Source of the DNA: Mobula hypostoma
Lineage: Eukaryota
Assembly (NCBI RefSeq): GCF_963921235.1
Contig: NC_086108.1
Coordinates: 4,712,001 to 4,776,000 of the forward strand
Reading direction: 5' to 3'
Length of the DNA stretch: 64,000 nucleotides
Part shown: positions 31,091-55,400 of the stretch, piece by piece
Layout: each line of letters begins with the position of its first letter
Position numbering within the stretch: position 1 is the first letter of the stretch
Notes under the pieces: model-generated
What the model saw: only the letters and a program-made list of their open reading frames with translations
Told to the model about the DNA's origin: nothing
The model's database searches: none
Made by a program: the position numbers and the translations under genes

Positions 31091-31241
31091 CTAGTTGGAA
31101 CATGATAGAGAATTTCTGAAAGTGATTGTACACTTCCAACTGTTGCTGCAATTAAGTATAAATGGAAAATTCCATGCAGAATATGACCCGTCTACAACCA
31201 CTCTTTGCCTTCTGTGGGCAAGCCAGTTCTGAATCCACAAA

Positions 31242-31422
31242 CAACAGGAATTCTGCAGATGCTGGAAATTCAAGCAACATACATCAAAGTTGCTGGTGAA
31301 CGCAGCAGGCCAGGCAGCATCTATAGGAAGAAGCGCAGTCGACTAACTAAAAGTTAGTCCTGACGAAGGGTCTCGGCCTGAAACGTCGACTGCGCTTCTT
31401 CCTATAGATGCTGCCTGGCCTG
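31242..31422. mobile_element. Palindromic PLE mini-insertion with 13-bp TSD
   Basis: CTGAATCCACAAA at 31229-31241 and 31423-31435; hammerhead motif at 31356-31391. Confidence 0.88.
31356..31391 (+). ncRNA. Minimal hammerhead ribozyme motif
   Basis: Identical 36-mer to 7407-7442. Confidence 0.8.
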
Positions 31423-33883
31423 CTGAATCCACAAAGCAATGTCCCTTGGATCCCATGCCTCCTTACTTTCTCAATAAGCCTTGCATGGGGTACTTTATCA
31501 AATGCCTTGCTGAAATCCATATACACTACATCTACTGCACTACCTTCATCAATGTGTTTAGTCACATCCTCGAGAAATTAAATCAGGCTCGTAAGGCACA
31601 ACCTACCTTTGACAAAGCCATGCTGACTATTCCTAATCATGTTATGCCTCTCCAAATGTTCATAAATCCAGCCTCTCAGGATCTTCTCCATCAACTTACC
31701 AACCACTGAAGTAAGACTCACTGGTCTATAATTCCCTGGGCTATCTCTACTTCCTTTCTTGAATAAGGATACAACATCTGTAACCCTCCAATCATCCGAA
31801 CCTCTCCCGTCCTCATTGATGATGCAAAGATCATTGCCAGAGGCTCAGCAATCTCCTCCCTCGCGTCCCACAGTAGCCTGGGGTACATCTAGTCCGGTCC
31901 AGGTGACTTATCCAACTTGATGCTTTCCAAAAGCACCAGCACATTCTCTTTCTTAATATCTACATGCTCAAGCTTTTCAGCCCACTGTAAGTCACCCCTA
32001 CAACCACCAAGATCCTTTTCTGTAGTCAATACCGAAGCAAAGTACTCATTAAGAACCTCTGCTACCTCCTACGATTCCATTCACACTTTTCCGCTGTCAC
32101 ACTTGATTAGTCCTATGCTCTCACATCTTATCCTCTTGCTCTTCAAAACTTGTAGAATGTCTTGGTGTTTTCCTTAATCTTGTCCGCCAAGGCCTTCTCA
32201 TAGCCCCTTCTGGCTCTCCTAATTTCTTTAAGTTTCTTCCTGCTAGCCTTATAATCTTCTAGAGCTCTATCATTACTTAGTTTTTTTGAATCTTTTGTAA
32301 GCTCTTCTTTTCTTCTTGACTAGATTTACAGTAGCCTTTGTACATCATGGTTCCTGTACCCTACCATCCTTTCCCTGTCTCATTGGCACGTACCTATGCA
32401 GAACTCCATGCAAAATCCCCTGAACATTTGCCACATTTCTTTTGTACGTTTCCCTGAGCATACCAGTTTCCAATTTATGTTTCCAAGTTCCTGCCTGATA
32501 GCTTCATATTCCCCCTTACTCCAATTAAACGCTTTCCTAACTTGTCTGTTCTTATCCCTCTCCAATGCTATGGTAAAGGAGATAGAATTGTGATCACTAT
32601 CTCCAAAATGTTCTCCCACTGAGAGATCTGACACCTGACCAGGTTCATTTCCCAATACCAGATCAAGTACAGCCTCTCCTCTTGTAGGCTTATCTACATA
32701 TTGTGTCAAGAAACCTTCTTGAATACACCTAACAAACTCCACCCCATCTAAACCCCTCACTCTAGGGACATGCCAATCGATATTTGGGAAATTAAAATCT
32801 CCCACCACGACATCTGTTATTATCACACACCTTTCTAGAATCTGTCTCCCTATCTGCTCTTCGATGTCCCTGCTACTATTGGGTGGTCCATAAAACACCC
32901 AGTAGAGTTATTGACCCCTTCCTGTTCCTAACTTCCACCCACAGAGACTCAGTAAGACAATTCCTCCATGACTTCCTCCTTTTCTGCAGCCATGACACTA
33001 TCTCTGATCAACAATGCCACACCCCCACCTCTTTTGCCTCCCTCCCTGTCCTTTCTGAAACATTTAAAGACTGGCACTCGAAGTAACCATTCCTGCTCCT
33101 TAGCCATCCAAGTCTCTGTAATGGCCACAACGTCATAACTCCAAGTACTGATTCCATCCGCTTTGTTCATAATACTCCTTGCATTAAAATAGACACATCT
33201 CAAACCATCGGCCTGAGCACGTCCTTTCTCTATCACCTGCCTATCCTCCCTCTCGCACTGTCTCCAAGCTTTCTCTACTTGTGAGCCAGTTGCCTCTTCC
33301 TCTGTCTCTTCAGTTTGGTTCCCACCAGTCAGCAATCCTAGTTTAAACTCTCCCCAGTAGCCTTAGCAAACCTTCCCGCCAGAATATTGGACCCCGGGAT
33401 TCAAGTGCAACCCGTCCTTTTTGTACAGGTCGCTCCTGCCCCAGAGGAGGTCCCAATGATACAGAAATCTGAATCCCTGCCCCCTGCTCCAATCTGTCAG
33501 CCACGCATTTATCCTCCACCTCACTCTATTCCTATACTCACTGTCACATGGCACAGGCAGTAATCCCGAGATGACTACCTTTGTGGTCCTGCTTCTCAAC
33601 TTCCTTCCTAACTCCCTGTAGTCTGCTTTCAGGACCTCCTCCCTTTTCTTGCCTATGTCATTGGTACCAATATGTACCATGACCTCTGGCTGTTCTCCTT
33701 CCCACTTCAGGATATCGTGGACGAGATCAGAAACATCCTGGACCCTGGCACCTGGGAGGCAAACTACCATCTGTGCTTCTTTCCTGTGTCCACAGAATCG
33801 CCCATCTGACCCCCTAACTATAGAGTCCCCTATCACTGCTGGTACAGATTCTGCGAGAGGTGACATTGTAAGGTTGGTCTTAC

Positions 33884-33905
33884 CTGGGGACTACGGCACG
33901 GTCAC
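33884..33905 (-). CDS. Candidate 22-nt micro-exon
   Basis: Acceptor ttcttctctgctctctgctctgttgacag|, donor CAG|GTAAGA. Confidence 0.5.
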
Positions 33906-34617
33906 CTGTCAACAGAGCAGAGAGCAGAGAAGAACTCATGCTCAGGGCCTGCACCCACTTCCAGCACTCAGTACTCAGTACTGCACCCACTGGTATTGCA
34001 CAAGAAGACCTGAAACTCTGCAACACCATAGGAAGTCAATGCAAACGAAGCCCTGGCTTAACGTTTTAAGCTAAAATACTTCTTGCGTTTGCGCAATAAT
34101 TAAATAGTTTCACTGAAACTTGTATCGGCCTTTGCATACTTAACGAAATTGTTTTTACAGCTGTCTTTTTTTAGAATTTAAATTTCCATTGTATGCATAA
34201 AATGGATTGCAAAAGTCTCCAGTTTGTATTTGTTGGATTGCTGGTGTTAAGTGTACTCTAATAATAAAGTTTATTCTGAACTTTCAATTACTCTTCGTCT
34301 CATGTTCTTGATATTTTTTGCTTATTTATTATTATTTCTTTCTTTTTGTATTTGCGCAGTTTGTTGTCTGCTGTACTCTGGTTGAATGTCCAAGTTAGTC
34401 TGATGTTTCATAATTATTATTCTATAGATTTATTGAGTATGCCTGCAGCAAAATGAATCTCAGCATTGTATATGGTGGCAGATACTCAGATAATAAAATT
34501 TACTTTGAACTTTGAACCAAACATTTTTATTCACAGCTAATAAGTCATAGCTCTCCATAGTTTTATACAACTCTCTTTTTCTCCTTGCTACCTATAGCTT
34601 TGTAAGCAAGACCTTAC

Positions 34618-34866
34618 CGCTTGCTGCTCTTTGCTTGAGACTCGCTGTAGGTCGCTGGGGCTCCCGGTTGTCTAGAGGTTTGATTCCGGCTTGCTGCCTG
34701 AGTGTGGACATTCCCTGGCCATCGCTGGGACTGTAATGCATTGTGGATCATAGGAGCACTCCACTGCAGGCTGTTGGTCCTGTATGGCGGTCTCAAACCA
34801 GCAGGCATGCTTTCAGTCTCTGCTTTACTGTCTATTGTGTGCATTTCATACAATTCGGAGCAACCC
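34618..34866 (-). CDS. Host-gene exon (249 nt, phase 2-2)
   Basis: Acceptor gtttccttgcctgcatttcctcctag|, donor CG|GTAAGG; open frame GCSELYEMHTIDSK...SESQAKSSK(R) inside ORF 34614-34925. Confidence 0.72.
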
Positions 34867-35924
34867 CTAGGAGGAAATGCAGGCAAGGAAACAGAATTAG
34901 GACAACTGCTGAAATGATAGCTCATAAATCAAGCACTTACTACAAGAAAGGCTGAAAACTCAAGTTATTTATAATGCTGCATCAGCGCATTTCCCTGGAG
35001 ATCATCAAAAGAGCATTTTGCTTCCTGGAGCTGGTGAATACTTCATAATCAAAAAGATTCTGCAGATTTCTGCTTGAAATCCAGAGCAGCAAAGACTCAA
35101 AGTTCTGGGGGAACTCAGCCAGTCAGGAAGGATCTATGGAGAGGAATAAACAGTTGACATTTTGGGCCAAGACCCTTCATCAGGATTAGGAATGAAAGGT
35201 GAAGAAGGCAGAATAAGAAGGTAGGGGGAGAGGGGAGAAGTACAGCTGGCAGGTAAAGCTAAGACCAAGTGAGGAGAAGCTGGTAGGTGGAGAAGTTGGG
35301 AGACGTGAGAAACTGGTGGGGGATAGACACTTCAGGATGAGACCCTTCATCAGGACTACTTCAGAGTCAGAAAAACCAGAGTGCCGAGGAATCAGAATCA
35401 GAATCAGGCTCAATATCTCTGGCCTATGTTGAAAAAAAAGTATAATAAGTAGAGTAAAAAAGTGGAAAAAAATGTAGTGAAGTGGTTCAGTGTCCATTCA
35501 GAAATCAGCTGTTCCTGAATTGTTGAGTGTGTGCCTTCAGGCTCCTGTACCTCTTCTCTGATTGTAGCAATGAGACGGGGGCAGGTCCTGAGTGATGGGG
35601 TCCTCAATAATGGAAGTTGCCTTTTCGAGGCATCGCCTTTTGCAGACGTCGTGGATGCTGGGGAGACCGGTGCCCATGATGAAGCTGACTGAGTTCACAA
35701 CTTTATGCTGCTTATTTCAATTACTGTGACTTTCAGTAAACGCTACGATCGTTTTGACACCAGAACCCTACATTCTCTCATAGAAAGCATTTCTTTTGTT
35801 GCTGTCACCTTTATATTTCTCTGTAAGGATCTTTGCGCAGAGCATCGAGAGTTAATTCCCTATTCCCAACTCTCTGATCAATGATCCTTATATCCCAAGA
35901 TATTCTTAGTTACAAATTGAAAAG

Positions 35925-36900
35925 CCTAGAGTGGAGGTTGATAGGTTCTTGATCAGTAAAGATAAGAAAAGTTATGGGGAGAAGGCAGGAGAATTGGGCT
36001 GAGAAGGAAAATAAATCAGCCAAAGCAGACTTGATGGACTGAATGGCCTAATTCTGCTTCTCTGTCTTGTGGTCTTATGGGAATTAAGTTATACATTACA
36101 CACTTCGAGAGCTGGGATTAGTATTGACAGGTAACGGTTGGGTGAGCAGGTGAACCAAAGGGTCTGTTCCTATATTGTGTTTCTCTATAATTCCACTTAC
36201 AATAGGATTTAGGGGAGTCTCCTCAGTAAAGGATTACTAACCTGCTTACAAAAGGTTTCTGGGGAGTCTAGTACCAGAAGGCACAGGTTCAGAATAGAGG
36301 AACATGCATTTAGAACAGAGATGAGGAGGGATGTCTTTAGCCAGAGGTTGACAAGTCTGTGGAATTAATTGCTAGCTGCCCGTGGAGATCAAGTCATTGG
36401 GTATATTCAGAGTAGAGGTTAATAGGTTCTTGATTAGCAAGGATGTGAAATGGTACAGCGAGAAGTTAGGAGAATGGGGTTGAGAGGGACAACAAATCAG
36501 CCTTGATGGAATGGCAGAGCAGACTCGATGGGCTGAATGGCCGACCTCTGCTCCTATGTCTTATGGTCTTAAGTCCTCAGTTACTATCCGGGGGGGGGGG
36601 GGTGTGCACAAACAGGATAGAACCAGTGTGAAGCTCTATTCTCAAATGAGCCCTGCTTGTGTTGGTAGTTTGAGCAGAGCCTAGTGTCCTATTTAATTAA
36701 TATATTCATTGCCACAGGCGGCTGTAGAGGCCAAATGTTTGGGTATATGTAAATCAGGGGTTGATAGATCCTTGATTAGTGAGGATGTCAAAGATTACGG
36801 GGAGAAGGCAGCACAATGGGGTTGAGAGGGATAATAATTCAGCCAATATCGAATTGTAGAGCAGATTCGAAGGGCTGAATGGCCTAATTCTGCTCCTACG
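35925..36900 (+). mobile_element. Several CR1 3' end fragments
   Basis: Recurrent gttgataggttcttgat...gaatggcctaattctgctcct 3' ends. Confidence 0.8.
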
Positions 36901-37477
36901 TCTACCCACTTATTCCTGCACAAAGAATGATGCCTAACAAGAGTTTCAGAGCCCCCAAGATCAATGGAATAACCCCTCCAAGTAAGCATGAAAATAAAAT
37001 TCTACAAACACAACTCCAAACCACTCTCACTACTTGCTGAGCTAACACAATTATGGGAGCTTTTGCAGGCACTTGTGAACTGGTTACTTTGGGAGAAGAC
37101 ATTGTCTAATATTCTGGAAAGACAGTCAAATCCAAGGACACCAAGTTAGCTCTCAGAACTTGGTTGGAATCCAAGTTAAATGGTTTGGCTGTCTGTGGAT
37201 GGTGTGTGCATAATCTAAAATAGACAGGCAGCCAACAAGGAAGCCATTTATCAGGCTTGGCCAGAAGTGAATTAAGTACATTCTGAATCCAAAGCATATG
37301 ACGTTTCAAGCATGCAGAAGGGCAAGAAGGTTCTTGGCACATCGCAGTTGTGAAAGGAAACACTTTGTCCTGACAGATTAAATCACTTGTAAAATTTACT
37401 TCAGTGATGGTAAAATTTTCAAGTATGGCTGAAGAGCTTCATAACAAAATGTTCTTATTTTCCCAATAGGCAAGGAT

Positions 37478-37850
37478 TAGATAGATAGATAGATAGATAT
37501 ACTTTATTAATCCCGAGGGAAATTGGGTTTCGTTACAGCCACACCTACCAAGAATAGAGCATAAATATAGCAATACAAAAAACCCCAACAATCAAACACC
37601 AAAATGCAAATTATGCCAGATGGAAAATAAGTCCAGGACCAGTCTATTGACTCAGGGTGTCTGATCCTCCACGGGAGGAGCTGCATGTTCGATGGCCACA
37701 GGCAGGAACGACCTCCCGTGCCGCCCAGTGTTGTATCACAGTGGAATGTGGCCGAAGTCCAACAGTAAAAAGTTCAAGATCCAGTCTGCAAACATGTTCC
37801 TTGATCGTAATATGCCCCGGATTGCACCGTCCGTTGTTAGCCAGGTGGAA
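37478..37850 (-). mobile_element. Internally deleted Rex1-like element with (TCTA)n tail
   Basis: APE segment NNGRCNPGHITIKEHVCRLDLELFTVGLRPH fused directly to C-terminal RSFLPVAI segment. Confidence 0.65.
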
Positions 37851-38235
37851 CATTGTGGAATATCACCAAAAAGACTGGAAAATTTCTACATATGGAGAGC
37901 ACTCTGACTGGCTGCATCACCATCTGGTATGGAGGGGGGAGGGGGGTTACTGCACACAATCAAAGCAAGCTGCAGAGAGTTGTAAAATTAGTCGGCTCCA
38001 TCATGGGCACTTGCCTCCTTAGTATCCAGAACATCTTCACAGAGCAGTGCCTCAAAAGCCATGTCCATCATTAAAGACCTACATCACCCAAGACATGCCC
38101 TCTTCTCATTATTACCACCAGGAAGAAAGTACAGGAGCCTGAAGATACGCACTCAATGATTCACCGTGTTGTTAAAAACTGATTCTGGTTCTAAGCACCG
38201 TCCCTCAGAAAAGTGATGGTTTACCAAGAACAGAG

Positions 38236-38316
38236 CGGGGGTTCCCAACCTGGGATCCACAGACTCCCTTGTTTAATTGTACTGGTCCATGGCATAAAAA
38301 ATGTTGGGAACCCCTG
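38236..38316. mobile_element. ~80-bp hAT-type MITE
   Basis: TIR C.GGGGTTCCCAAC / GTTGGGAACCCCTG; copies at 41968-42047 and, split, at 47287-47940. Confidence 0.75.
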
Positions 38317-38476
38317 CTTTACAGCAGAGATGAAGAGAAATTTCTTAAGCCAGAAGGTGGAATTCATTGCCATGGATGGCAATAGAAGACAAGCAACTGG
38401 ATATATTTAAAGTGGAGATTGATACGTTCTTGATGAGCCAGGGCATCAAAGGCAAAGGGGAGAAGGCAGGAGAATG

Positions 38477-38783
38477 CAAACAACAGGAATTCTGCAGATG
38501 CTGGAAATTCAAGCAACACACATCAAAGTTGCTGGTGAACGCAGCAGGCCAGGCAGCATCTATAGGAAGAGGTACAGTCGACGTTTCAGGCCGAGACCCT
38601 TCGTCAGGACTCTAGGAAGAGGTACAGTCGACGTTTCAGGCCGAGACCCTTCGCCAGGACTCTAGGAAGAGGTACAGTCGACATTTCAGGCCGAGCCCGA
38701 AGGGTCTCAGCCTGAAACGTCGACTGTACCTCTTCCTAGAGATGCTGCCTGGCCTGCTGCGTTCACCAGCAACTTTGATGTGT
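38477..38783. mobile_element. Palindromic PLE mini-insertion with tandem hammerhead units, 15-bp TSD
   Basis: GAAGGCAGGAGAATG at 38462-38476 and 38784-38798; 50-bp units across 38562-38695. Confidence 0.9.
38576..38611 (-). ncRNA. Minimal hammerhead ribozyme motif
   Basis: Reverse complement is AGTCCTGACGAAGGGTCTCGGCCTGAAACGTCGACT. Confidence 0.8.
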
Positions 38784-38965
38784 GAAGGCAGGAGAATGGG
38801 TTTGAAAGGAAGAATAAATCAGTCATGATGGAACGGCGGAGCAGCGTTGAAGGGCCAAATCGAGTGATTGCACCACGTGTGCACCATCTTCCACTATAAC
38901 TCATCTAGGTTATCTGAATGGAGTAATACCTTGGATTGTGAATACACTGCAGTTCATTCAGCACT

Positions 38966-39145
38966 GAAACAGAACCAAGGAACACTGGAGCACCCATCCC
39001 TCCTCCCCCGCCCCCGAAACAGCACCAAGGAACACTGGATGACCCGCTCCTCATGAAAGTGCACCAAGGGACGTCGGATTACCGTCCCCCAGTGAAACAG
39101 CACCAAGGAACACCAGATCACCCCATGAAAGAGCACCAGCAGAAT
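38966..39145 (+). repeat. Degenerate minisatellite, 5 units
   Basis: GAAACAGCACCAAGGAACAC-like motif at 38966, 39016, 39055, 39094, 39127. Confidence 0.75.
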
Positions 39146-40304
39146 ACATCGACTCTTCAGACAACAGCAGTTTAAGCTGGTGTCTCACTGTCACCTGCTC
39201 CAGTGCAATTGGGATGGACCGGTTAGCCCTGCCAGTGAGGTCCAGGGTTTCGGAAAGAAACACAACATCATTCTGGAGGAACTCAGCAGGTCAGACTACA
39301 TCCACAGAAAGGAATAAACAGTCGATGTTTCAAGTGGAGACCCTTTATCCTAATGGATGAAGCCCGAAATGTTGACTATCTATTCCTTTCCATAGATGCT
39401 GCCTGATTTGCTGAGTTCTACCAGCATTTTGTATGTGTGTTGCTCTGGACTTCCAGCATCTGCCGAATCTCTTGTGTTCACGCAATATCAACTCCCAAGG
39501 TGAGCAGAAGAATGAAACAGCTTAGATTAAAAATAATTGGCTCCTATTAAGCAGTTATTAATTGAACAATAAATTTATTGGCTGCAGTTGTCTTTGTTCT
39601 TGGTTACATGTTTCACCACACATTTATTTTAGAGGGCAGTGAAACAGAGGGCACATAATGAACTCCAACCCATTCCCATGAACACCTATATGCAACAGAG
39701 CACAGGAAGGAGTTCATGCCAATGTCCCATCCACTTGCTGATCTCTATTTCTGCCCTTTCCTCACCCCATCCTCTCTATCAACAGATTTGCACCCAGCTA
39801 TAGGTCAGAATGGGGCTTGCCTCTTTTACAGTTATGCAGCTTTAAAATCGCTGATTTTTCTGGTTGCCTCATTATAGGAGAGGGTGCAGAGGAGATTCAC
39901 CAGGAGAACAGACACAAAGTGCTGGAGGAGCTCAGCATCTATGGATGAGAATAAACAATTGATTTTGGGCTGAGACCCTTCATTAGGACTGGAACAGAAG
40001 GGGTGTGACGAAGGCCCATCGCTAACTACGGATGGCACATGGTGCACTCGGTAAAACGCTCATCCCCAGCAGTAACAGTGACTGGGTCTGAACCAGAGCT
40101 GCTGCATTGAGCTGTCTCATATCGAGGTAGCAGCAACCCGCACAGGTGTGCTGATGGCGGAGGATACCATCTTTAATTCGATAATTGAGTATTTTTTTCC
40201 CAGTTTTTGTCTTGTTTTGAGGTAAATAAAAGCACCGCAATTTATTTTTGCGACTCAAGCCATCTGGTTATTTTTCTTAAACAATTGATCCACAGTTTTT
40301 TGTG

Positions 40305-41165
40305 ACAAGGGGGAAGCAGCCAGAACAAGAAGGTGGAGAGAGGAGAGGAAGAAGTACAAGGTGAGGGGGACAGGGTGAAGTAAGGAGCTGGGAAGTGGAT
40401 TGGTGAAAGAGGTACAGGGCTGGAGAAGGGACCATCTGATAGGAGAGGACTGAAGACCATGGAAGAAGGGGAAGGAGGAGGAGCACCAGAAAGGTAAGAT
40501 GGAAAGGTAAGAAGAGAATGTGTGAGAGGAAAACAATAATGGGAATATGGGAATGGTGAAGGAGAGGATGGGGTGGGGGGGGGGGGCATTACCAGAAGTT
40601 TGAGAAATCGATCTTCATGCCATCAGGTTGGAGGTTACTGAGATGCAATATGAGGTGTTGCTCCTCCAACCTGAGTGTGGCCTCATCGTGGCAGTAGAGG
40701 AGACGATGAACTGACATGTTGGAATAGGAATGGGAAGTAGAATTGAAATGGGTGTCCACTGGGAAATCCTGCGTTTGGTGGCGGATGGAGGGAAGCTGCT
40801 CGATGAAGCTGTCTCCCATTCTACGCTGGGTCTCACTGATATACAGGAGGCCACACTGAGAGCATCAGATGCAGTAGGTGACCCCAACAGACTCACAGGT
40901 GAAGTGTCACCTCACCTGGAAGGGGCAGTGTGGCACTTGTTTCACTTGCAAGGATAAGTACGAGGAGGGAGACCAGTTGGGAGGGACGAGTGGATAAGGG
41001 AGTTGAGTAGGGAGTGATCCCTGTGGAAAATGTTGGGGGAGGGGGGAAGGTTTGCTTGCGGTGGGGTCCCGTTGGAGATGGCAGAAATGACGGAGGATTA
41101 TGTGCTGGATGCGGAGAATTGTGAGGTGGTAGATGAGGACAAGAGGAACCCTACCCCTAGTGTGG
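40305..41165 (-). mobile_element. Penelope-like element fragment (GIY-YIG region)
   Basis: RVPLVLIYH..IQHIILRHF; THFNSTSHS..RLEEQHLILHLSNLQPDGMKIDFSNF. Confidence 0.88.
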
Positions 41166-42047: not shown

Positions 42048-42699
42048 TATTTGAGGCATTAAAGAGAATCGCAGGTAGGCACGTGGAACAAATAAAAATG
42101 GAGGGCTATATAGGAGGGAAAGGTTAAACTGATTTTTGTGGTTGGCACAAGGCTTTGCAGTTCTTGCTACCCGGGTTGAATTCCTGCCACTACTGCCTGT
42201 AAGGAGTTTTTATGTTCTCCCCGTGACCACTTGTGGGTTTCCTCCGGGTACTTTGGTTTCCTCCCACAGTCCAAAGATGTACCGGTTCATAGGCTAATTG
42301 GTCATTGTCAATTGTCCCGTGATTAGGCTCGGGTTAAACCGCGAGGGGGTGGTGTGGGTGCTGGGCAGCACGACTTGAAGGGCTGGAATGGCCTATTCCA
42401 TGCTGTAGCTCAATAAATAAACAAACAAACAAACAAATGTATAAATAAATAAAAGGTCAGCACAACATTGTTCTCTGGCAGGAACTGAGGGATGTTGATA
42501 CGGGGTTTTCTATGCTTTTAGGCTGGTACAATGTAGTTTTATGGACAGTAAAACCCTTTTTTTCCCCAGCAGTTTGAGACAGAGCCAAATATAATCAAAC
42601 ACGAACCACTCCATTCCTTCAGTCAAGCCTGCCACTTCGAGTGATATAAATATTAAAGATTAGCTTTATTTGTCACAAGAACATCAAAACATCCAGTGA

Positions 42700-42922
42700 C
42701 ATACATCAAAGTTGCTGGTGAACGCAGCAGGCCAGGCAGCATCTATAGGAAGAGGCGCAGTCGACGTTTCAGGCCGAGACCCTTCCTGACGAAGGGTCTC
42801 GGCCTGAAACGTCGACTGCGCCTCTTCCTATAGATGCTGCCTGGCCTGCTGCGTTCACCAGCAACTTTGATGTATGCTGCTTGAATTTCCAGCATCTGCA
42901 GAATTCCTGTTGTTTGCGTTTA
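42700..42922. mobile_element. Palindromic PLE mini-insertion with 14-bp TSD
   Basis: AAAACATCCAGTGA at 42686-42699 and 42923-42936; near-perfect inverted arms; hammerhead core at 42786-42817. Confidence 0.9.
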
Positions 42923-43984
42923 AAAACATCCAGTGAGATGTGTTGTTTGTGTCCCTAAGACAATGAGGCATAGAAGCAGAGTTTGGCCGTTTGGTCCATC
43001 ATGTAAGGTATGCTGTTCCATCTTCCTTTGCCCGCTACGCCGCTGGCGTTTAGGGCAGCAATGAAGGTCCTCCGTTTCTGGCAGTGTTCATGGCATCCTT
43101 CATCATACCAGTTACTACCTCTCAGTTTTCACTACTGTCAGTCATACAAGTTTCGGGTGGAGACTCAGGAACACCATTGTATTCAGATGCGGAAGGATCC
43201 TTCATTGCTGTTTCCGTAACAGTTCTGTTTGACCAGTCAGGGTTGTTAAACCTGAGCTGAACTCCTGAACCTGAAGGACCGGTGACCACTCTTAGTCTGG
43301 CCTCTACCCTTTGACCTGTTTCATATGAGTGACTTTAACAAGAGCCAAAGCACAAAACCCTGATTCCAGCCGACATAGCTGTCCGGGTCATTGAGGCACA
43401 CGAGCCTCCAAACCACAAGGTGCAGTCCTCTTGGAGGTGTCATTCCACCATGGCTGATTCACTTTCCCTTTCAACCCCATTCTCCTGCCTTTTCCCTATA
43501 ATCTTTGACACACTTACTAAGCAAGAACCTATCAACCTCTGCTTTAAATATAGCAAACGTCTTGGCCTCCACACTCGTCTGTGACAACGAATTCCACAAA
43601 TTCAACACCCTCTGGCTAAAGAAATTTATCCTCATCTGTGTTCTAAAGGGACGTCTTTGTATTCTGTCAACAACCAAGACAGTCAGAGGATGTTCTGGAG
43701 GCAGCTTCTAGCACCAAAACACCATGCCCATGCCCCCAACTTACTAACTGTAATTCAAATGTCTTTTGGAATATGGGAGCACCTTGAGGAAACAGACACA
43801 ACCTCAAGCAGAACATACAAACTCTTTATAGCAGCCGGAATTGAACTCCAATCTTCCAATTGCTGACAGAGTAAAGGGTAACGCTAACTACAATGCTATC
43901 ATGCCATGCTGGTATCAAACAGCCCCAAACTCCATGCCACAATCAAACAGAATTAGGTTAAGCCATTTCTGTGTATTCATTTAA

Positions 43985-45303: not shown

Positions 45304-45333
45304 CTGGAACTCCCGTTCACAGTCTCGTAGCCT
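45304..45333 (-). CDS. Host-gene mini-exon (30 nt)
   Basis: Acceptor ttatttcacgttcttctgtactaag|, donor CAG|GTAACC; phase 2-2 reading GYETVNGSS(R) joins 34866 in frame. Confidence 0.6.
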
Positions 45334-45818
45334 CTTAGTACAGAAGAACGTGAAATAACACCACGTTGTCAGTACAACACAACGACACTGTTGAACAGCT
45401 TTGTTGAGTGGAATGGCAACTTAGGGATATTCAGCCTTGGCCCTATCATGCACAAGATTACAACTCTTACCAAGTATTTCGTAAAAATAGTACTCTGCCC
45501 AAACATGTTTAAGAGTAGTCACATTGAAACCACAAACCAGGCGTGGTTATGATGATGTGCATGGAAAACTCTACATTAAAGTTGTATCATCATCCCCTGA
45601 TTTAGCTGTACTCATTCACTCAGGCTGTAGATCAAGAACATTCTTCTTAAAAGAAGTCAAGATGATTTAAGAAATTATATTCAAGTCACTCCTTTCAATA
45701 GATTCACTGGAACTCCCTCTCTCTTCACACCCTCTTTCCCTCATGCCTCAGGTCGATTCTCTCCCCCCCCGCCCCCATATGAGAATACTGTCTCAGGTCA
45801 ATTCCCTCCATGAAAGTA

Positions 45819-46101
45819 ACACTCACAACACGCTGGAGGAATTCAGCAGGTCGGGCAGCATCAGTGGAAACGATCAGTCAACGTTTCGGGCCGTAACCCT
45901 TCGTCCGGACTGAAGAGGGAAGGGGCAGAGGCCCTGTTGACTGACAGGGCCTCTGCCCCCTCCTTCTTCAGTCCTGACGAAGGGTTCCGGCCCGAAACAT
46001 TGACTGATCGTTTCCACGGATGCTGCCCGACCTGCTGAATTCCTCCAGCGTGTTGTGAGTGTTGCTTTGACCCCAGCATCTGCAGAGTATTTGTGTTTAC
46101 T
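45819..46101. mobile_element. Palindromic PLE mini-insertion, subfamily 2, 13-bp TSD
   Basis: CTCCATGAAAGTA at 45806-45818 and 46102-46114; hammerhead motifs at 45970-46005(+) and ~45876-45911(-, CGGACGA variant). Confidence 0.9.
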
Positions 46102-47352
46102 CTCCATGAAAGTACTCTCTCCCTCTCTCTCTTCACCCCAAATCAGAACCAAATCAGGTCTAACATCACCTGCATATGTTGTGCTATTTGTTGTTCTGCA
46201 GCAGCAGTATATTGCAATACAAAATAATACAAACTGTGAATTACAGTAACTATATAAAGAAAACACAAATTAAATAATTAGTGCTTTAAAAAAAGCAGTG
46301 AGATAGTGTTCATGGGTTCAATGTCCATTCAGAAATCTGATGGCATTGTTCCTTGAAGATGTCCTGAGTGCTGGGAAGGCTAGTGCCCAAGACGGCACTG
46401 ACTGAATTCACAACTTTCCGTAGCTTCTTTTGATCCTGTGTAGTGCCCCCTCACCCCCGCCACCATACCAGACTGTGATGCAGACAGTTAGAATGCTCTC
46501 CGCGGTACATTTGTGGAAATTCACAAGTATCTTTGGTGACGTACCAAATCTCAAACTCGTAATGAAATCTCACAGCTGTTGTGCCTACTTAGTAACTGAG
46601 TCGATATGTTGGGCTCAGGATTGATCCTCAGAGATGTTGACATCGAGGAACTTGAAATTGCTCCTCCTTTCCACTACTGATCCCTTGTTGAAGACTGATG
46701 TGTGTTCCCTCATTTTACCCTTTCTGAAGTCCACAATCAATTTTTTGGCTGTTACTGAGACACCACTCAACTAGCTGATTATCTCACACCTGTACGCTTT
46801 CTCATCACCACCCGAAATGCACTCACATCTACTTGCTCCTCACCCACTGTGATCACTCCCCTCCCCATGAGAGGACTTTCTGCCTCGCTCTTTTTCTCCC
46901 TCTCTCCACCCGATCCACTCGAAGTCAGAGTCAAAATAAATGCATTATTAAAGTGTGTATATGTTATCATATCCTACCCTGAGATTCATTTTGTAAGACC
47001 ATAAGATATCAGATCAGAATTGGGCCATTCGGCCTATCAAGTCAGCTGATTTAGTATACCCCTCAGCCCCACTCTCCTGCCTTCTCCCTGTATCCCTTCA
47101 TGCCGGACTAACAAAGAACCTGCCTTCTCCCTGTATCCCTTCATGCCGGCCTAACAAAGAACCTATCAAACTCTGCCTTAAGTATGTTCAATGACTCGGC
47201 CTGTGGCAATGAATTCCACAGATTCACCATCTTCTGGCTAGAAAAATTCCTTCTCATCACTATTCTGAAGGGACGTTCCTCTTTTCCGAGGATTTCTAAC
47301 CTGGGGTCTGTGGACCTCTTGCTTAATGATATTGGACTACAGTATAATAAAG

Positions 47353-47922
47353 TGTAACATCCTGGGAAAGGTTTCACTGCTAATGTAAAGGTTTTTCTGC
47401 AGTAGCAGTGTTTGGGTTATGGCTAGAGATAACGGGGGCTTTGGAATGTGCACTGTCCAATGAACGGAGTGTTTTTTCTTGTTGTGTGCCTGACATTAAG
47501 GTGGTCTGGGTCTTCTGTTCAGTGGAAGATGGGGAGAGAAGATGCCTAAAAGGAGAGGTCATAGGCACCAGAAAGAAGTGGGCTTCGAGTGGGACTGGGA
47601 GTCGATGAAGCCCGGGGAAATTGATGGAGGACCAGTGGAAGGGAAACTGTGAGCTCCAACTTGTGCGTGTTAGACTGTTTCATTAAAATGGGCGCTTTTC
47701 TTTTTGTTTTACTTTACTAACCCTTTAGTCAAATTAAGAATTATAAAGCTAAATCATTTAATGGCATACTGTGTGTTATTTCGTGGTATTGATTTGTAAC
47801 AGGGTAACACAACACACAGCATTCACCCAAACAGGAGGTTTTGTACCTCAATCTCACACGTTTGGTGGGGCCAGAGATTGTCTTCCCTAGACTTACGCCG
47901 TCGACAGAACCGGAGGGTTACA
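47353..47922 (+). mobile_element. Solo LTR with 4-bp TSD
   Basis: TGTAAC...GTTACA termini; AAAG at 47349-47352 and 47923-47926; splits a MITE; strand assignment tentative. Confidence 0.85.
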
Positions 47923-50900
47923 AAAGGTTGAGAACCCCTGCTCTATCGTGAGGCTGTTTCTTCTGGTTCTAAACCCTCCCACTATAGGAACCATCCTCTC
48001 CACATCCACTCCGTCTGGGCCTTTCAATATTCAATGTTTCAATGAGACTTCTTCTCCCCCACCTCCCTCCATTTTTCTAAACTCTAACGAGTACAGGCCC
48101 AAAGCCATCAAATGCTCCTCATATGTTAACCTTTTCATTCCTGGAGTCATCCTCTGGAAACCTCTCCAGAGCCAACGCACCTTTCCTTAGATAAGGGGCT
48201 CAAAACTGCTCACAAACTATACACAATGCTTTTCATCTAGGCATTTACAGGAAAATACAGAAATACAGTAGAATTTTATGAAAAACTACACATAAACAAA
48301 GACAGACAAACCAGTGTGCAAAAGACAAAATGTACAAATAAATAAATAATACCGAGAACATAAATTATAGAGTCATTGAAAGTGAATCAATCGGTCATGG
48401 AATTCAGAGTTAGGAGAATGAAGTTGCTCACATCAGTTCAGGAGCATGATGATTGAGGGGTAATAGCTGTTCCTGGACCTGGTGTTGTGGGTTCTAATGC
48501 CCCTCCACCACCTTCCTGATGAGAAGAGATGGTGGGCATCTTTGACGATGGATGCTGCTTTCTTGTGGCAGCACTCCATGTAGATGTGCTCAGTGGTGGC
48601 AGGGGGAGGGCTTTGCCTGTGATGGATTTGATTATATCCACCACTTTTTTGTAGAATTTTCCATTTCTGGGCAGTGCTATTTCTATACCTGTACTGTGCA
48701 TCTTTAGAGGTCTGTCAGAGCTTTAGATGACATACCAAATCTACGCAAACTTCTAAGAAAGTAGAGGTGCTGTCGTGGCTTCTTTGTGATAACACTTATG
48801 CGCTGGTCCCAGGACAGATCTGAAATAATAATGTCAAGGAATTGAAAGTTACTGACCCTCTCCACCCCGATCCTGTAATGAGGACTGGCTCGTGGACCTC
48901 TGGTTTCTTCCTATAGTCAATGATCAGTTCTTCTCCATCCACTGTGGTCAATGTCCTTATGAGAGTAGAGGACTCTCTTCTCCCTCCCCCAACACCCTCC
49001 AGAACAATCTCTCCTGTGAGAACTCTATCTCTCTGGCTCAAACCTCATGTGGGTTTTGTGGATCCATTCCAGGCAGGACGAGAGTTATACCCTCAATCCA
49101 TACCCCCAGATCAGGTCCATGTGAGCAGGAGGTATGAGAGCCGGCTACACCTCAGTTACATGAGTTCTCAAGTCTGGAGTTCATTGCCAAGTCCACAGCG
49201 GGGTTGGGGTCGATACCAAAGTCTGGAGCCCGAAGGTCAATTGGGAGTCCAGAGGTCAAAGCTCGGGGTCTGAGAGTTCACAGGGGAAGTTGGAGGCCTG
49301 CTGTCTGCAAGCCCTTTGGAGGCCGGAGGCCCAGCAGCATGTCCTTGGGTTGGAAGAAGCACGTCCTTGGGTGTGTATGTGTTGGGGGAGTTGTTGTTTT
49401 CTTGCTTGTCATGTTCTGTCTGTGGTGTTCTGTTGTTGTTACTTGTGCTGTTCTGCCAAACATTGTAGACATGCTGCACATGTGCAGGCTGCCCTGGCAC
49501 ATCTTTAAACAACCCAATTGCTGCATTTCACTGTCTGTTTTGATGTACATGTGATGAACTTAAAATTCCTGGGTGTTACCTGTCCTGGGCCCAACACATA
49601 AGTGCAGCTGCTTTGACAAACATCTATAGATGTGCAGTGAGAGTATATTGACCGGCTGCATCACAGCCTGGTAGGGAAATACTAATGCCCTTGAATGGAA
49701 AATCCTAAAATGACTAGCCAATTTAGCCCAGTACATCACAGGTAAAGCCCTCCCCACCATTAAGCATATCTACATGGAGAGTTGCAGGAAAGCAGCATCC
49801 ATCATCAGGGACCCGCACCATCCAAGACCTGCTCTCTTCTTGCTGCTGCCATCAGGAGCCTCAGGACTCACGTCACCATGTTCAGGAACAATTACTACCC
49901 CTCAATCATCAGACTTTTGAACAAAAGGAGAGAAATTCACTCATCTTCACTTGTCTCATCATTGTAAAGTTCACCCAACCAATGGACTCTCAAGGGCTCC
50001 TCATATCACGTTCACGATACTTATTGCTATTTATTTATACTTGCATCTGCAGTTTGTTGTCTTCTGTACTCTGATTGAAAGCCCTAGATGGGTGGTCTTT
50101 CATTGATTATGTTATGGTTACTCTTCTATCGATTCATTGAGGATGTCCACAAGAATATGAATGTCAGGGTTGTACATGGTGACATGTATGTACTTTGATA
50201 TAAAATTTACTTTGAACCTTGAACCTTGATTACTAAATGAATCTAAGTCTGAATCTGAAGGTACTTGGTTGAATCTGCTCCAGATTTGAGGAGGTTTTCA
50301 ACCCTACTGAATGAGTTCATTTCATATCCTGAGCCCACAGTGAAGGACGGACACTATGCAAGAAGAAAGTGCTCCTTGTTGCAGTGGCCTGCTTTGGTTG
50401 CAGTCAATCACTTCAACACCCCCAGACGCCGTTCAGCCAGATATCTTCCAAAGAAAACAAATAAATAAAATGCAAGTCACGTGGAGGAGAAGTTGTTTGA
50501 TGTGTGACTATTTGCAGACATGTAATCAACCAGATCAACTATAAACTGAACAGACTGAAGCACTCATTATCGAATTCACATCTGGAATCCAAATGTGCAT
50601 TTTGTTCAACGTGATCAAGAAGAGAGATAAGCATTCCCTAGTAAAATTATATCCAAGTTTATTTTTATATAGTGTGTGGAATTGTAAAAACATCTCAAAA
50701 TATAAGACATTCCTTTCAACTCCAAAGACTCCGAGTTCAAAGATGTTTGAACTAGAGAAGGCACATGGTAGTGTAGAACTAAGATTTTATGATTTAAAGA
50801 TTAACTCTATTTGTCACATGTACCTCAATGACCAATAGTCTACGGATGTGCAGGTGCTGGTATGCTCTTGGCGCCAACAACTCATGAACCCTAACCATGG

Positions 50901-52484
50901 GATTCTGTGGAGAGCTGGTGCTGTAAAACACTGTGCTAACCATTTGCTACTGGGCCTCCCCTTTATGCCACCTCCCCACCCCCCTACGCTACTGTCGCTG
51001 GCTGTAAGGAGTTTGTATGTTCTCCCCATGAATGCGTGCATTTCCTCCGGGTGTTCCAGTTTGCTTCCACAGTCCAAAGGCATACTGATTGGTAGGTTAA
51101 CTGGTCATTGTTAATTGCCCCATGATTAGTCTAGGTTTAAATCAGCTGCATCTCAATAATAAAAAAAAATTTCAGTAAATAAATCTGCAAAATAAAAATA
51201 AATAGACTTGGCGATTGTTACTTTAAAACTACTAGAAACCCACCTTTCTCATTCTAGAGTGGTTGACCCTTAATTACTGAGATGATCCTGATACAGATTC
51301 AAGGCAATCTGTATGAGTAAGAAATGTTGGTACTATCAGCAATATTCTCTCCCACTGAGCAGATAATGATCTACTCCTCTAATCTCTTTTTGCACTAACT
51401 GGACAGTAAGCAACTGCAATCAATTGAGAGAAATCCCCTGGGTCCCCTCCTCCTTCCCTTTCTCCTACGGTACACTCTCGTCTCCGATCAGATTCCTTCC
51501 TCTGCAACCCTTTACCTTTCCCACCCTTTTGGCTTTACCTATCACTTTCTATCTGCTTCCTCTCTCCCCACCTTTTTATTCCAGCGTCTTCCCCCTTCCT
51601 TCTCAGTCCTGATGAAGGGTCTCGGCCTGAATCGTCGACTCTCTACTCTTTTCATAAATGCTATATGACCTGCTCAGTTCCTCCAGCATTGTGTGTGTGT
51701 GGCTTTGGATTTCCAGTATCTGCAGGATTTCCCGTGTTAGTGAAATGAGTCATTTGCTTCAATGAGCAATAGTCCAAGGATGTGCAAGTGTCACCATGCT
51801 TCTGGCACCTACATAGCTTTCCCACAACTCACCAACCCTAACCATGGGATTATTTGCAATGTGGGTAGAAACCAGAGCACCCAGAAGAAACCCACACGGT
51901 CACAGAGAGAATGTACAAATTCTTTATAGACAATGGCTGGAATTGTGTTAACTGCTTTGCTATTGAACCACCCCTTTACACAACCACTCAGACCCTCTAT
52001 GCTACTACTGGCTGTAAGACTTAACCCTTCACTTCATTGTCTGCTACCTTGGCCCTTAAGGAGAAATACTATACATGCTGGGTGGCGGGGTGGAGATACG
52101 TCTCTACCAAAGGAGGTGTAAGGTGCTCCCTCCCTCCGCTAACCTGCAGGTTAAGGTGTAGCACCTGCTTAGCCCCACTCACCCCCGATCACGCTCACGT
52201 GAAGCCATGGGGGCAGTATGGTCGTACGAGCAGCCGGTGCATATCACAAGACATGGTTATGTGACCACTGACACCAGGCAGACAGTCTCTGAAGAGTATT
52301 GATAATGGCTGGGGTTGCCCATCTTGTAAAGACACTGTCCAGAAGAAGTGGGCAGTGAGTACAGATCCAAAGCTGCCAACCCCCTTCATTCTCAGAATCA
52401 TTCTCGTGTACCTCCTCTGGACACTCTCCAATGCCAAACCACTTCTACAGAAAAATTTGCCAAGAACAGTCCATATGACCCTAA

Positions 52485-55400
52485 GACATAGGAGCAGAAT
52501 CAGGCCACTCAGCCCATCCAGTCTGCTCCACCATTCCATCATGGCTGATGCCAGATTCCACTCAACCCCATAGACCTGCCTTCTCACCATATCTTTTGAA
52601 CCCTAACTGATGAAGAGACGACCAACTTCTGCCTTAAATATACACACGGACTTGGCTTCCACCGCACTCTGTGGCAGAGTATTCCACAGATTCACTACTC
52701 TCTGGCTAAAAAAAAAACCTTCCTTACGTCTGTTCTAAAGGCTCGCCCCCTCAATTTTGAGGCTGTGCCCTCTAGTTCTGGATACTCCCACCTCACAAAA
52801 CATCCTCTCCACATCCACCCTATCTAGTCCTTTTCACACAAGATACTCTGCAGACGCTGGGGTCAAAGCAACACTAACAACACACTGGAGGAACTCAACA
52901 GGTCGGGCAGCATCCGTGGAAATGATCAGACAACATTTCGGGCCGGAACCCTTCGTCAAGACTGTAGGGGGAAGGGGCAGAGGCCCTATAAAGAAGGTGG
53001 GGGAGGGTGGGAAGGAGAAGGCTGGTAGGTTCCAGGTGAAAAACCAGTAAGGGGAAAGATAAAGGGGTGGGGGAGGGGAAGCAGGGAGGTGATAGGCAGG
53101 AAAGGTGAAGAAGGAATAGGGGAAAACACAATGGGTAGTAGAAGGAGGCGGAATTCTCCAACTTCCGGTAATTCCCTCCCCCTCCCTTCCCCTATCCCTA
53201 TTTCACTCTGCCCCCGCCCCCAGCTGCCTGTCACCCCCCTCATGGTTCCGCCTCCTTCTACTATCCATTGTGTTTTCCCCTATTCCTTCTTCACCTTTCC
53301 TGCCTATCACCTCCCTGCTTCCCCTCCCCTTCCCCTTTATCTTTCCCCTTACTGGTTTTTCACCTGGAACCTACCAGCCTTCTCCTTCCCACCCCCCCCA
53401 CCTTCTTTATAGGGCCTCTGCCCCTTCCCTCTTCAGTCCTGACGAAGGGTTCCAGCCCGAAACGTTCCTCCAGCGTGTTGTGAGTGTTGCCTAGTCCTTT
53501 TGACATTCAGTAGATTTCAAAGAGATCCTCCCACATTCTTCTAAATTCCAGTGAGTACAGGCCCAAAGCTGTCAAATGCTCCTCATGTGTTAACCCCTTC
53601 ATTCTCAGAATCATCCTCATGAACCTCTTCTGGACTCTCTCCAATGACTATACATCCTTTCTGATATATGGTGTCCAAAACAGTTGACAATACTCCAAGT
53701 GCAGCCTGACTAGTGTCTTATAAATGCTCAGCATTATCTCCTTGCTTTTATATTCTATTCCCCATGAAATAAATGCCAGCATTGCATTTGCCTTCTTTAC
53801 CAGAGACTCACCTGTAAATTAACTTTCTGTAAGTGTTGCATGAGGACTCCTAAGTCCCTCTGCACCTCTGATGTTTGAACCTACTCCCCATTTAGATAAT
53901 AGTCCACATTATTGTTGCTTTTACCAAAATGCATTATCATACACTTCCTAACACTTTATTCCATCTGATACTTGTTTGCTCATTCTTCTAATATGTCTAA
54001 GTCCTGATGCAATCGCATTGCTTCCTCAGCACTAACTACCCCTCCTCCTATGTTCGTATCATCTGCAAACTTTGCCACAAAACCATTAATTCCATTATCC
54101 AAATCATTGACAAACAATGTGAAAAGCAGCGGTCCCAATACTGACCCCTGAGGAACACCACTAGTCACTGGCAGTGAACCAGAAAAGGCTCCTTTTATTC
54201 CTACTCTATCCATGCCAGTATCTTTCCTGTAACGCTATAGGACTTTATGTTGTTAAGTAGCCTCATATCTGGCACCTTATCAAATGTCTTCTGAAAATCC
54301 AAGTAAATGACATCCACTGACTCTCCTTCATCGACCCTGCTTGTTACTTTCTCAAAGAACTCTAACAGATTTGTCAGTCAAAATTTCCCTTTCCAGAAAC
54401 CTCTTTCTAAAGATGTAATTCCACCTCTTACCAACAGAGCCACACCACCACCTATGCCTTCCTGCCTGTCCTTTCGATACAAGGTATATCCTTTGATGTT
54501 AAGCTCCCAACTATTGGCCTTCTTTCAACCACAACTCAATGATGCCCACAAAATGATACCAACCAATCTCTTAATTGTGCCAGGAGTTTGTCCAACTTAT
54601 CCCGAATGCTGCGCACATTTAAATACAGCACCTTCAGTCCTGCAATGTTTGCCCTTTTGAATTTTGCCTCTGTGGTACAAATTAATTCTCTGTCTGCATT
54701 TGTACCCAGTCATTGGCTTGTCCTTCCTTACATTCATATTACACCCATCATCTACTGGTAAACCTGCTGGCTCATCCTCAGCTCTGTCATCCCGATTCCC
54801 ATCCCCCTGCCATATTAGCTTAAACCACTCCCAACAGCTCCAGTAAATCTGCCCACAAGAATATTGGTCCCCCTTGGATTCGAGCGCATTCTGTCCCTTT
54901 TGTACCTGCCCCAGAAGAGGTCCCAATGATCCAGAAATCTGAATCCCTGCTCCCTGCTCCCTGCTCCAATTCTTCAGCCACGCATTTATCCTCCACCTCA
55001 TTCTATTCCTCCTCACTCTCGCATGGTACAAACAGCAATCTGAGATTACTACCCTTGAGCGCCTGCTTCTCAGCTTCCTTCCTAACTCCCTTTATTCTTT
55101 TTTTCAGGACCTCCTCTCTTCTCTTTCCTATATCAGTGGTACCAATATGTACCATGGCTTCTGGCTGCTTATCCTCCCTTTTCAGGATATTGTGGATGCT
55201 TCCACATACACCTCAGACCCTGCACCTCAGGGACAAACTACCATCCGTGTTTCCTTTTTGCGTCCACAGAATCGATTATCCTTCCCCCTGACTATAGAGT
55301 CCCCTATAGCTGCTGCCACAGTTCCCCACGCTTCTCAGCCACAGGGCCAGACTCAGTGCCAGAGGCATGGCTGCTGTTGCTTCCCCCAAGTAAGTCCTCC

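Follow-up and report, generated by a model that had tools for sequence, protein, structure and literature searches.

Palindromic mini-insertions of a Penelope-like element in the Mobula hypostoma genome, probably made anew at each integration

The window analyzed here is a stretch of 64,000 nucleotides of the Mobula hypostoma genome (NCBI RefSeq assembly GCF_963921235.1, contig NC_086108.1, positions 4,712,001 to 4,776,000 of the forward strand). It carries five small palindromic elements, E1 to E5, whose inverted arms derive from a Penelope-like element (PLE), namely from its 3' end. The insertions are bounded by target-site duplications (TSDs), a terminal tail is present on one arm and absent from the other, sequence variants are mirrored between the two arms of a copy, and the junction is uncoupled from the haplotype of the arms. 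Such mini-elements are probably dead-on-arrival single insertions, made anew at each integration by the reverse transcriptase (RT)/GIY-YIG protein of an abundant PLE with a C-terminal endonuclease (EN). Each would unite, head to head, two copies of the final ~100-330 nt of the PLE, and would not replicate as a palindromic unit.

Five palindromic insertions in the window

A preliminary description of the window, made from its letters alone, had reported five small palindromes with perfect TSDs of 11-15 bp and no coding sequence. All five are confirmed at the coordinates it gave, each as a close inverted repeat with arms that are 94-100% complementary, and an independent inverted-repeat scan of positions 31000-53700 returns six pairs, all six within these loci. 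The TSDs are exact and measure 13, 15, 14, 13, and 11 bp in E1 to E5, respectively. The longest stop-to-stop frames cover 37-127 codons, with no long open reading frame (ORF), and the elements, 180-660 bp in size, are made of two inverted ends only, devoid of any direct pair of pseudo-long terminal repeats (pLTRs). The two sequence subfamilies recognized earlier are found again, A comprising E1-E3 and B comprising E4-E5, ~72-78% alike, and the inversion junction indeed differs in each of the five copies. Non-palindromic copies of the same sequence end either at ...GATGTRTG(TTGC) or ~35 nt further at ...CCTGTTGTTTGCG, and this additional segment is called the tail in what follows. The features of the five elements are listed below in window coordinates, whole elements being given without strand.

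31229..31435, no strand: E1 (subfamily A), TSD CTGAATCCACAAA of 13 bp at 31229-31241 and 31423-31435
31242-31348, sense on the minus strand: E1 tailed arm
31349-31351: E1 centre, AAA
31352-31422, sense on the plus strand: E1 tail-less arm, cut short at ...CCTG
31360-31387, plus strand: E1 intact hammerhead core
38462..38798, no strand: E2 (subfamily A), TSD of 15 bp at 38462-38476 and 38784-38798
38477-38697, sense on the minus strand: E2 tailed arm
~38564-38697, minus strand, within the tailed arm: ~2.5 tandem 50-nt hammerhead units of E2
38580-38607, minus strand: E2 intact hammerhead core
~38698-38783, sense on the plus strand: E2 tail-less arm, beginning inside the hammerhead core
42686..42936, no strand: E3 (subfamily A), TSD of 14 bp at 42686-42699 and 42923-42936
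42700-42785, antisense on the plus strand: E3 tail-less arm
42786-42790: E3 centre, CTGAC, 5 nt
42786-42922: E3 tailed arm, tail at ~42877-42922
42786-42813, plus strand: E3 intact hammerhead core
45806..46114, no strand: E4 (subfamily B), TSD of 13 bp at 45806-45818 and 46102-46114
45819-45937: E4 tail-less arm, followed by a 6-nt centre
45944-46101: E4 tailed arm
45974-46001, plus strand: E4 intact hammerhead core, the copy in the other arm having CUGA changed to CGGA
52824..53501, no strand: E5 (subfamily B), TSD of 11 bp at 52824-52834 and 53491-53501
from 52835 inward, sense on the minus strand: E5 tailed arm
53000-53153 and 53246-53399: best-paired stretches of E5
53439-53466, plus strand: E5 intact hammerhead core, the core of the other arm having a point change
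ending at 53490: E5 tail-less arm, with a ~40-nt deletion directly 3' of the core

The arms of E3 are 100% complementary across 86 nt. Those of E5 extend into the CT-rich 3' untranslated region (UTR) of the PLE, and the 92 nt between its best-paired stretches are CT-rich like this UTR. The tandem units of E2 are each delimited by successive hammerhead cleavage sites, and of their cores one is intact while the other reads CUGG. This tandem looks like a miniature same-polarity retrozyme-like repeat, yet the junction between its units is unique in the genome. Regarding E3, contigs from four sequencing runs over 42400-43200 report a very high repeat depth across the element, and two of the runs contain one weak contig joint from 42692 to 42933 (21 letters on the shorter side, three other letters between), which is too poor to call an empty site.

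The source element and other copies in the window

The arm sequence of E1-E5 occurs once, in a single orientation, at positions 5910-7536, where it follows a CT-rich stretch and decayed RT and GIY-YIG frames. The arms are therefore the 3' end of a PLE, as the preliminary description had proposed in assigning them to Penelope pLTR ends. This frameshifted and truncated copy serves as the single-arm reference:

5910..7536, plus strand: PLE copy of subfamily A, 5'-truncated and decayed
5910-6347: RT fragment with the motif YIDD (ORF translation)
6849-7115: GIY-YIG fragment, LLYIGET... (ORF translation)
7411-7438: hammerhead core, in a 3' part that comprises the CT-rich 3' UTR and ends near 7536

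The RT fragment matches proteins of 255-2000 residues with E-values down to 6e-62, and the closest named relatives belong to rays and sharks. One relative, P0047 (931 residues), possesses an RVT_1 domain at residues 414-603 plus, at its C-terminus, a GIY-YIG domain at residues 839-919, and the window frame 6849-7115 aligns to its residues 848-928 (E 5e-16). Pfam analysis of the window frames alone reports a sub-threshold GIY-YIG hit (E 0.024) and no match for the RT piece, and a PDB sequence search with the RT piece did not return any match. With the domain order taken from P0047, RT followed by a C-terminal GIY-YIG, the source element is a canonical EN+ PLE. An AP-endonuclease-like frame lies directly upstream of the PLE copy as read by eye (5437-5775, plus strand).

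The five palindromes noted earlier are all real; they are not the only copies in the window, which also holds older head-to-head and single-arm copies:

~446-675: older head-to-head copy
25826..26075, no strand: older head-to-head copy of a diverged subfamily, identified by eye, TSD not recognizable
39254..39481, no strand: older head-to-head copy, left arm tail-less and right arm tailed
7300-7536, 18327-18532, and 51552-51735: single-arm copies

Visual inspection of region 7480-7536 and of the E1-E3 arms suggests two adjacent small stem-loops at the insertion end points: AGCAAC...GUUGCU encloses the proximal one, and GAAUUU...GAAUUC lies within the tail. The predicted folds of E1-E3 pair the first of these stems and a small stem in the tail region.

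Abundance of palindromic copies in the genome

The 33-nt hammerhead core of subfamily A is present in 39,061 exact copies in the 3.48-Gb genome, and its reversed control in none. Among the first 100 places listed, neighbouring cores less than 2.5 kb apart are arranged (-,+) in 11 cases, (+,-) in one, and on the same strand in two, i.e., the head-to-head arrangement is strongly preferred. A consecutive sample was formed by core matches 1-24 in genome order minus the pair 12/13, which gives 21 insertion events with 260 nt in view. Six of these are palindromes with TSDs, four are short single arms with TSDs, and 11 are long, with their 5' end out of view. Palindromes, six of the ten short insertions, are thus the commonest short form, and extrapolation from 6/21 suggests that they make up about a quarter to a third of the intact-core insertions, on the order of ten thousand.

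A second sample was selected by the terminal 88 nt of the element and hence always contains the tail by design. Its 29 loci outside the window, read by eye, comprise 16 with an adjacent inverted arm, nine single arms, and four copies of more than 1.3 kb. TSDs of 13-16 bp are identified by exact match in 10 of 14 sampled loci, and the overall range is 11-16 bp. The variable TSDs, the 5' truncation, and the adjacent inverted 5'-truncated copy are those of PLE insertions. At three loci (L090, L095, and L102, G000:C1), a short single arm is separated at its 5' end from the left TSD by 7-17 nt of unrelated filler.

The one-tail rule and the inner ends

Non-palindromic copies of the consecutive sample comprise ten tailed and five tail-less ones, and more copies of either kind were seen outside this sample. 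In palindromes the tail is found on exactly one arm: in all five window elements, in the six palindromes of the consecutive sample, and in three further pairs that were selected for having both cores. If we assume that each arm chooses its end independently with a probability of 0.67 for the tail, one of each is expected with a probability of 0.44 per copy, and nine out of nine with ~7e-4 by our own arithmetic. None of the 59 head-to-head rows of the junction table has two tails, five of these rows being uninformative (outer end out of view, or sub-alignments). Most tail-less arms stop at the canonical proximal site, a few (E1, L030, L040, L059, L064, and L086) stopping further in.

The two less-biased samples provided 24 copies whose inner ends we read and tallied ourselves, as the automatic junction table over-extends some alignments across palindromic centres (e.g., L089) and mislabels arms if their outer end is not in view. 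In 11 copies, it is the tail-less arm that extends further upstream, by up to 338 nt (L064), and in six the tailed arm; in the remaining seven, which include the loop-free perfect palindromes L086 and L088, the two ends lie within 2 nt of each other. Junction fillers that belong to neither arm are found, e.g., at L033, L034, L038, and L078. A junction hot spot is seen in the terminus-selected sample, where 22 nt at the hammerhead core's 5' edge hold nine of the 23 5' ends. Inner ends show no preference for the canonical cleavage site GUC^GACUG, to which only E1, L036, and L098 come within ~3 nt, and a ribozyme-cut RNA as the usual template was rejected.

Mirrored haplotypes and recurrent junctions

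The sharing of variants between arms was assessed over 62 nt in 49 distinct palindromic copies, paired by script, against 1000 shuffles of the arm partners. Non-majority sites are mirrored in 51 cases versus a shuffled mean of 13.5 (maximum 26), and arms are discordant at 46 sites versus a shuffled mean of 120.9 (minimum 98). For the common variants, the ratios of mirrored to one-arm copies are 17:1, 12:3, 8:0, and 10:2. A scan of bystander arms was not relied on by itself, as the independent copies were too few and several of the "bystanders" turned out to be inverted arms of the targeted palindromes.

Haplotype and junction vary separately. The AAGCGC haplotype is carried, besides E1, by ten copies with nine further junctions, two of the ten sharing one. 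Conversely, 24 of the 30 displayed E3-type copies, the window locus included, align gap-free to E3 and have a common junction, and the copies with this junction combine CATACA or CACACA with CAGG or CAAG in all four ways, mirrored and with their own TSD each; mirrored GCGC/GTGC/GTAC and TATAGG/TCTAGG variants are observed as well. The E3 junction is present at 66 places genome-wide, three of them in one array of 145-bp period. This array, at G000:C2:12242908-12243226, is a short tandem array in which the three E3-type junctions follow each other 145 bp apart. A loop-free perfect palindrome at position -4 (L086 type) is found at 53 loci, and a palindrome with arms starting 9 nt upstream of the core at three. 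Each recurrent junction represents at most 0.2% of the 39,061 cores. The junctions of E1 and E4 are not shared among the scored genome matches, 11 of the best matches of E1 having been inspected.

The preliminary description had proposed breakpoint sharing as a discriminating test. The test turned out not to discriminate: shared breakpoints do exist, at the 66, 53, and three loci just mentioned, but they are uncoupled from haplotype. Such breakpoints behave as hot spots, and they fit fresh building from the information of one arm and not the faithful copying of a palindromic master. Formation de novo at each insertion, which had been favoured on the basis of the differing junctions, is supported by the mirrored variants, by the uncoupling of haplotype and junction, and by the unique tandem junction of E2.

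The hammerhead motif

The motif CTGANGA...GAAAC occurs eight times in the window versus 1.5 expected. In minimal PLE hammerheads, the core is CUGANGA...GAAA, helix I is short, and helix III is almost absent, as described in the available part of Cervera & de la Pena (2014, PMC4209133), and the E1-E5 core shares all three traits at the motif level. Read by eye as RNA, it exhibits a helix I formed by UAGUC/GACUG, the core CUGACGA, a short helix II, GAAA, the sequence ACGU for helix III, and a cleavage triplet. The self-complementary ACGU at the helix III position fits an action as a dimer, as for the minimal PLE hammerheads in the same text (PMC4209133), and the E1-E5 motif is thus of the minimal dimer type. 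One difference with the usual PLE hammerhead, noted by eye, is the 10.1/11.1 pair, which is A-U here and usually G-C. The motif itself brings nothing new as compared with minimal PLE hammerheads, and the Rfam models miss it: the Rfam search that had been suggested as a check did not identify a hammerhead on the whole window (gathering score, or E<=10) nor on an 81-nt stretch around 7411.

The preliminary description had assigned hammerheads in both polarities to the family. With the strict core pattern, each of E1-E5 is intact on one strand only and none of the five on both. The second copy of the core is lost to the junction, which cuts inside or before it, in E1, E2, and E3, and altered by a point change in CUGA in E4 and E5. 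Both strands of E1-E5 are predicted to fold as rods (74-88% paired, -102 to -518 kcal/mol) with the core buried in the stem. The hammerhead is the PLE's own minimal dimer-type motif, carried passively in the arm; in the transcript of a palindrome, it would be locked in a long hairpin and the ribozyme would be inactive, as these predicted folds suggest. Published PLE hammerheads cleave weakly or need protein, according to the parts available of PMC4209133 and to PMC11167929.

Two further observations concern this motif and its surroundings. A CTGATGA...GAAAC match at 17663-17687 lies outside any recognizable PLE context and probably occurs by chance. The palindrome centres at 42754-42822, 38666-38735, and 45906-45975 give sub-threshold matches with Rfam microRNA precursors (mir-3926, mir-5681) of 40-52 bits versus gathering scores of 82-88; these generic hairpin artefacts are the only Rfam matches at the E1-E5 loci.

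A proposed dual-priming mechanism and its alternatives

Structure alone suggests that the mini-elements most likely arise through dual priming on one RNA. The PLE protein would nick both target strands 11-16 bp apart, which would give the TSD, and the two 3'-OH ends would prime RT on a common short PLE RNA, each at one of its two neighbouring internal initiation sites. The arm started at the distal site would receive the ~35-nt tail, and that started at the proximal site would be made without it. Both cDNAs would then run to or near the RNA 5' end, often 0-16 nt upstream of the hammerhead core, and a template jump from end to end, or end-joining, would link their 3' ends, frequently with the addition of a few filler bases. 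Priming of one RNA by both strands, one per start site, would account for the one-tail rule and the mirrored variants; the arrival of both cDNAs at or near the RNA 5' end, for the correlated or identical inner ends and the hot spot; and the final linking step, for the fillers and the offsets in either direction. RNA 5' ends may thus underlie the junction hot spot, and we conjecture that it corresponds to the pLTR transcription start, the 5' ends clustering at A-4 and A-8, each after a pyrimidine.

Several of these steps have a biochemical counterpart. In vitro, the purified protein of PAc, a PLE of the anole, cuts both target strands and extends them, its RT starts at two adjacent internal RNA sites whose spacing corresponds to the tail, and its insertion is independent of hammerhead cleavage (Frangieh et al., 2024, PMC11167929). 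The anole and ray elements would thus share the cleavage and extension of both strands, the two adjacent internal start sites with the tail between them, a hammerhead located some tens of nucleotides upstream of these sites, and cleavage-independent insertion, and the end-point stem-loops of the window copies recall the stem-loop at the anole RT start site. In contrast, the anole study reports no joined head-to-head products, no one-of-each rule, and no strand difference (PMC11167929), and it was performed in vitro, whereas the present evidence is entirely genomic and concerns another host and another PLE lineage.

A number of points weigh against dual priming. Start-site use is equal between strands in vitro (Frangieh et al., PMC11167929), so a strict one-of-each outcome needs an extra assumption, e.g., two enzymes on one RNA. 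The older copy 25826-26075 appears tailed on both arms, the sole exception seen. The arms of L012 differ in known variants (GCGC versus GTAC), which indicates that the template is not always common to both. The samples are small and partly biased by tail- or junction-containing queries, and the inner ends, taken from BLAST ends and by eye, are uncertain by a few nucleotides. Offsets in both directions could also result from an asymmetric central deletion of a perfect palindrome, and the recurrent junctions (66, 53, and three loci) would also fit small self-propagating lineages. Regarding the extra assumption, two RT protomers could load onto one short RNA beginning slightly upstream of the hammerhead, one per start site, each primed by one nicked strand, with their cDNAs then joined; this step, undescribed for PLEs, is put forward tentatively, and we are inclined to doubt it.

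Ranked second to dual priming is fold-back or self-priming, in which one cDNA from the distal site would turn back at its 3' end, copy itself outward, and stop before the tail, its centre being trimmed later. Such a course also predicts mirrored haplotypes and correlated inner ends, it agrees with the 5-nt centre of E3, which is part of the tailed arm, as expected of a hairpin loop, and self-priming is indeed how palindromes at inverted PLE junctions are explained in the available text of Arkhipova et al. (2013, PMC3846280). We nevertheless hold it to be unlikely. The copied arm of a fold-back cannot hold sequence absent from the primary one, yet the tail-less arm is that which reaches further in 11 of 24 copies, and it cannot itself be the primary, being without tail. 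Loop-free perfect palindromes, as at the 53 loci of the L086 type and at L088, are impossible for a folded single strand, PLE-foreign filler at junctions such as those of L033, L034, L038, and L078 counts against it, and a stop exactly at the proximal initiation site is left without a reason. Central deletions would have to be added to account for the further-reaching tail-less arm, the loop-free palindromes, and the proximal stop.

The preliminary description had also considered an independent non-autonomous retrozyme- or viroid-like family, i.e., a palindrome whose rod-like RNA would be processed by the hammerhead and mobilized in trans by the PLE, of which the 66-copy E3 class could be an example. 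This class, with its identical junction and outer ends at 66 places with different TSDs, and the other junction at 53 loci are what such a family might produce, and non-LTR retrozymes are proposed as PLE derivatives in the accessible part of a preprint (bioRxiv 10.64898/2026.07.22.740005). The mirrored variants largely refute this reading, since the copying of a master would give shared unmirrored differences while those of the E3 class are mirrored and occur in all four combinations. Moreover, the left end of the E3 class coincides exactly with the proximal RT initiation site, the TSD abuts it, and no flank of a master is carried along; the recurrent junctions each stay at or below 0.2% of the cores, that of E2 is unique, and those of E1 and E4 are not shared among the scored genome matches. 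A self-propagating family is likewise unsupported by the motif, with no intact core on both strands in any of the five elements and near-perfect predicted rods that bury it. In the text available of the retrozyme preprint (bioRxiv 10.64898/2026.07.22.740005), 'palindrom' and 'hairpin' occur 0 times and 'inverted' once, in the reference list. Such a family is therefore very unlikely. Still less credible, to the point of being negligible, is an origin at the DNA level, whether as a foldback or miniature inverted-repeat transposable element (MITE), by local inverted duplication after insertion, or as an assembly artefact. The terminal inverted symmetry and small size do resemble those of MITEs and foldback elements. 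Against this, the TSDs vary from 11 to 16 bp, whereas those made by DNA transposases are of fixed length; the two ends are asymmetric, only one having a tail; and the arms correspond to the 3' end of an element that encodes an RT. Clean TSDs at dozens of loci across many contigs speak against an artefact or a secondary duplication.

Other features of the window

The remaining part of the window contains remnants of other mobile elements and a large tandem array. The AP-endonuclease-like frame upstream of the PLE copy is counted among the remnants of long interspersed nuclear elements (LINEs).

5437-5775, plus strand: AP-endonuclease-like frame
11209-11961, minus strand: open frame with helix-turn-helix (HTH) domains of Sleeping Beauty / Tc1-type transposases (E 7e-10)
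32380-33890, minus strand: LINE remnants (32380-32907, endonuclease-reverse transcriptase domain; 33363-33890, GDSL-esterase-like/OSK frame)
58566-63414: purine-rich tandem array of 4.8 kb (period of 41 bp, ~118 copies, 89% matches), based on a GAGGGA-like 6-mer, all six frames being open

Comparison with known elements and significance

In the twin priming of L1 elements, both target strands prime RT, which leaves an inverted 5' part inside one TSD. The inverted piece is then a different and more 5' part of the RNA, and the two arms are not complementary. The mini-elements differ from such products, as their two arms represent one and the same 3' segment, with 94-100% complementarity. They differ as well from MITEs and foldback elements by their TSDs of 11-16 bp and their tail at one end only, and from viroid-like or ambisense agents, none of the five having an intact core in both polarities. 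Metazoan non-LTR retrozymes are also small, non-coding, and PLE-related, with type I hammerheads, as described in the available part of the preprint (bioRxiv 10.64898/2026.07.22.740005). In contrast with the mini-elements, which are inverted, have one intact core, and show no propagation as a unit, retrozymes are there same-polarity tandems that yield circular RNAs. Only E2 contains a tandem, with one intact and one mutated core and a unique junction.

The closest resemblance is with complex insertions of PLEs themselves. In the parts available of Arkhipova et al. (2013, PMC3846280) and Craig et al. (2021, PMC8557442), PLE insertions often have an inverted 5'-truncated copy and a tail of 30-40 bp at one end only. 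Head-to-head pLTRs in one TSD, a one-sided tail, and palindromes at the junction are common to these published insertions and to the window elements, as are a hammerhead in the pLTR and frequent 5' truncation (PMC3846280, PMC8557442). The published units described there bear ORFs, whereas those of the window are ORF-less and made of inverted ends only. Inverted pLTRs with a one-sided tail are therefore already published, and the window elements are their minimal ORF-less form. No description of ORF-less palindromic PLE mini-insertions, or of their statistics, was found in a literature search whose coverage was incomplete and excluded supplements, so that this is not proof that none exists.

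The integration of PLEs is poorly understood, and thousands of young TSD-bounded head-to-head insertions represent a large natural data set in this respect. Their junctions, fillers, one-tail rule, and mirrored variants can be compared with the in vitro extension of both strands from two start sites. In genome annotation, such hairpins may be taken wrongly for MITEs, retrozymes, or microRNA precursors, and in ribozyme surveys the hammerhead counts of such genomes are mostly those of dead PLE ends. If two RT protomers do load onto one RNA, this would explain the inverted pLTRs and the one-sided tail in all PLEs, and, as a bolder corollary, the ~ten thousand hairpins might act as sources of double-stranded RNA that feed RNA silencing of the PLE.

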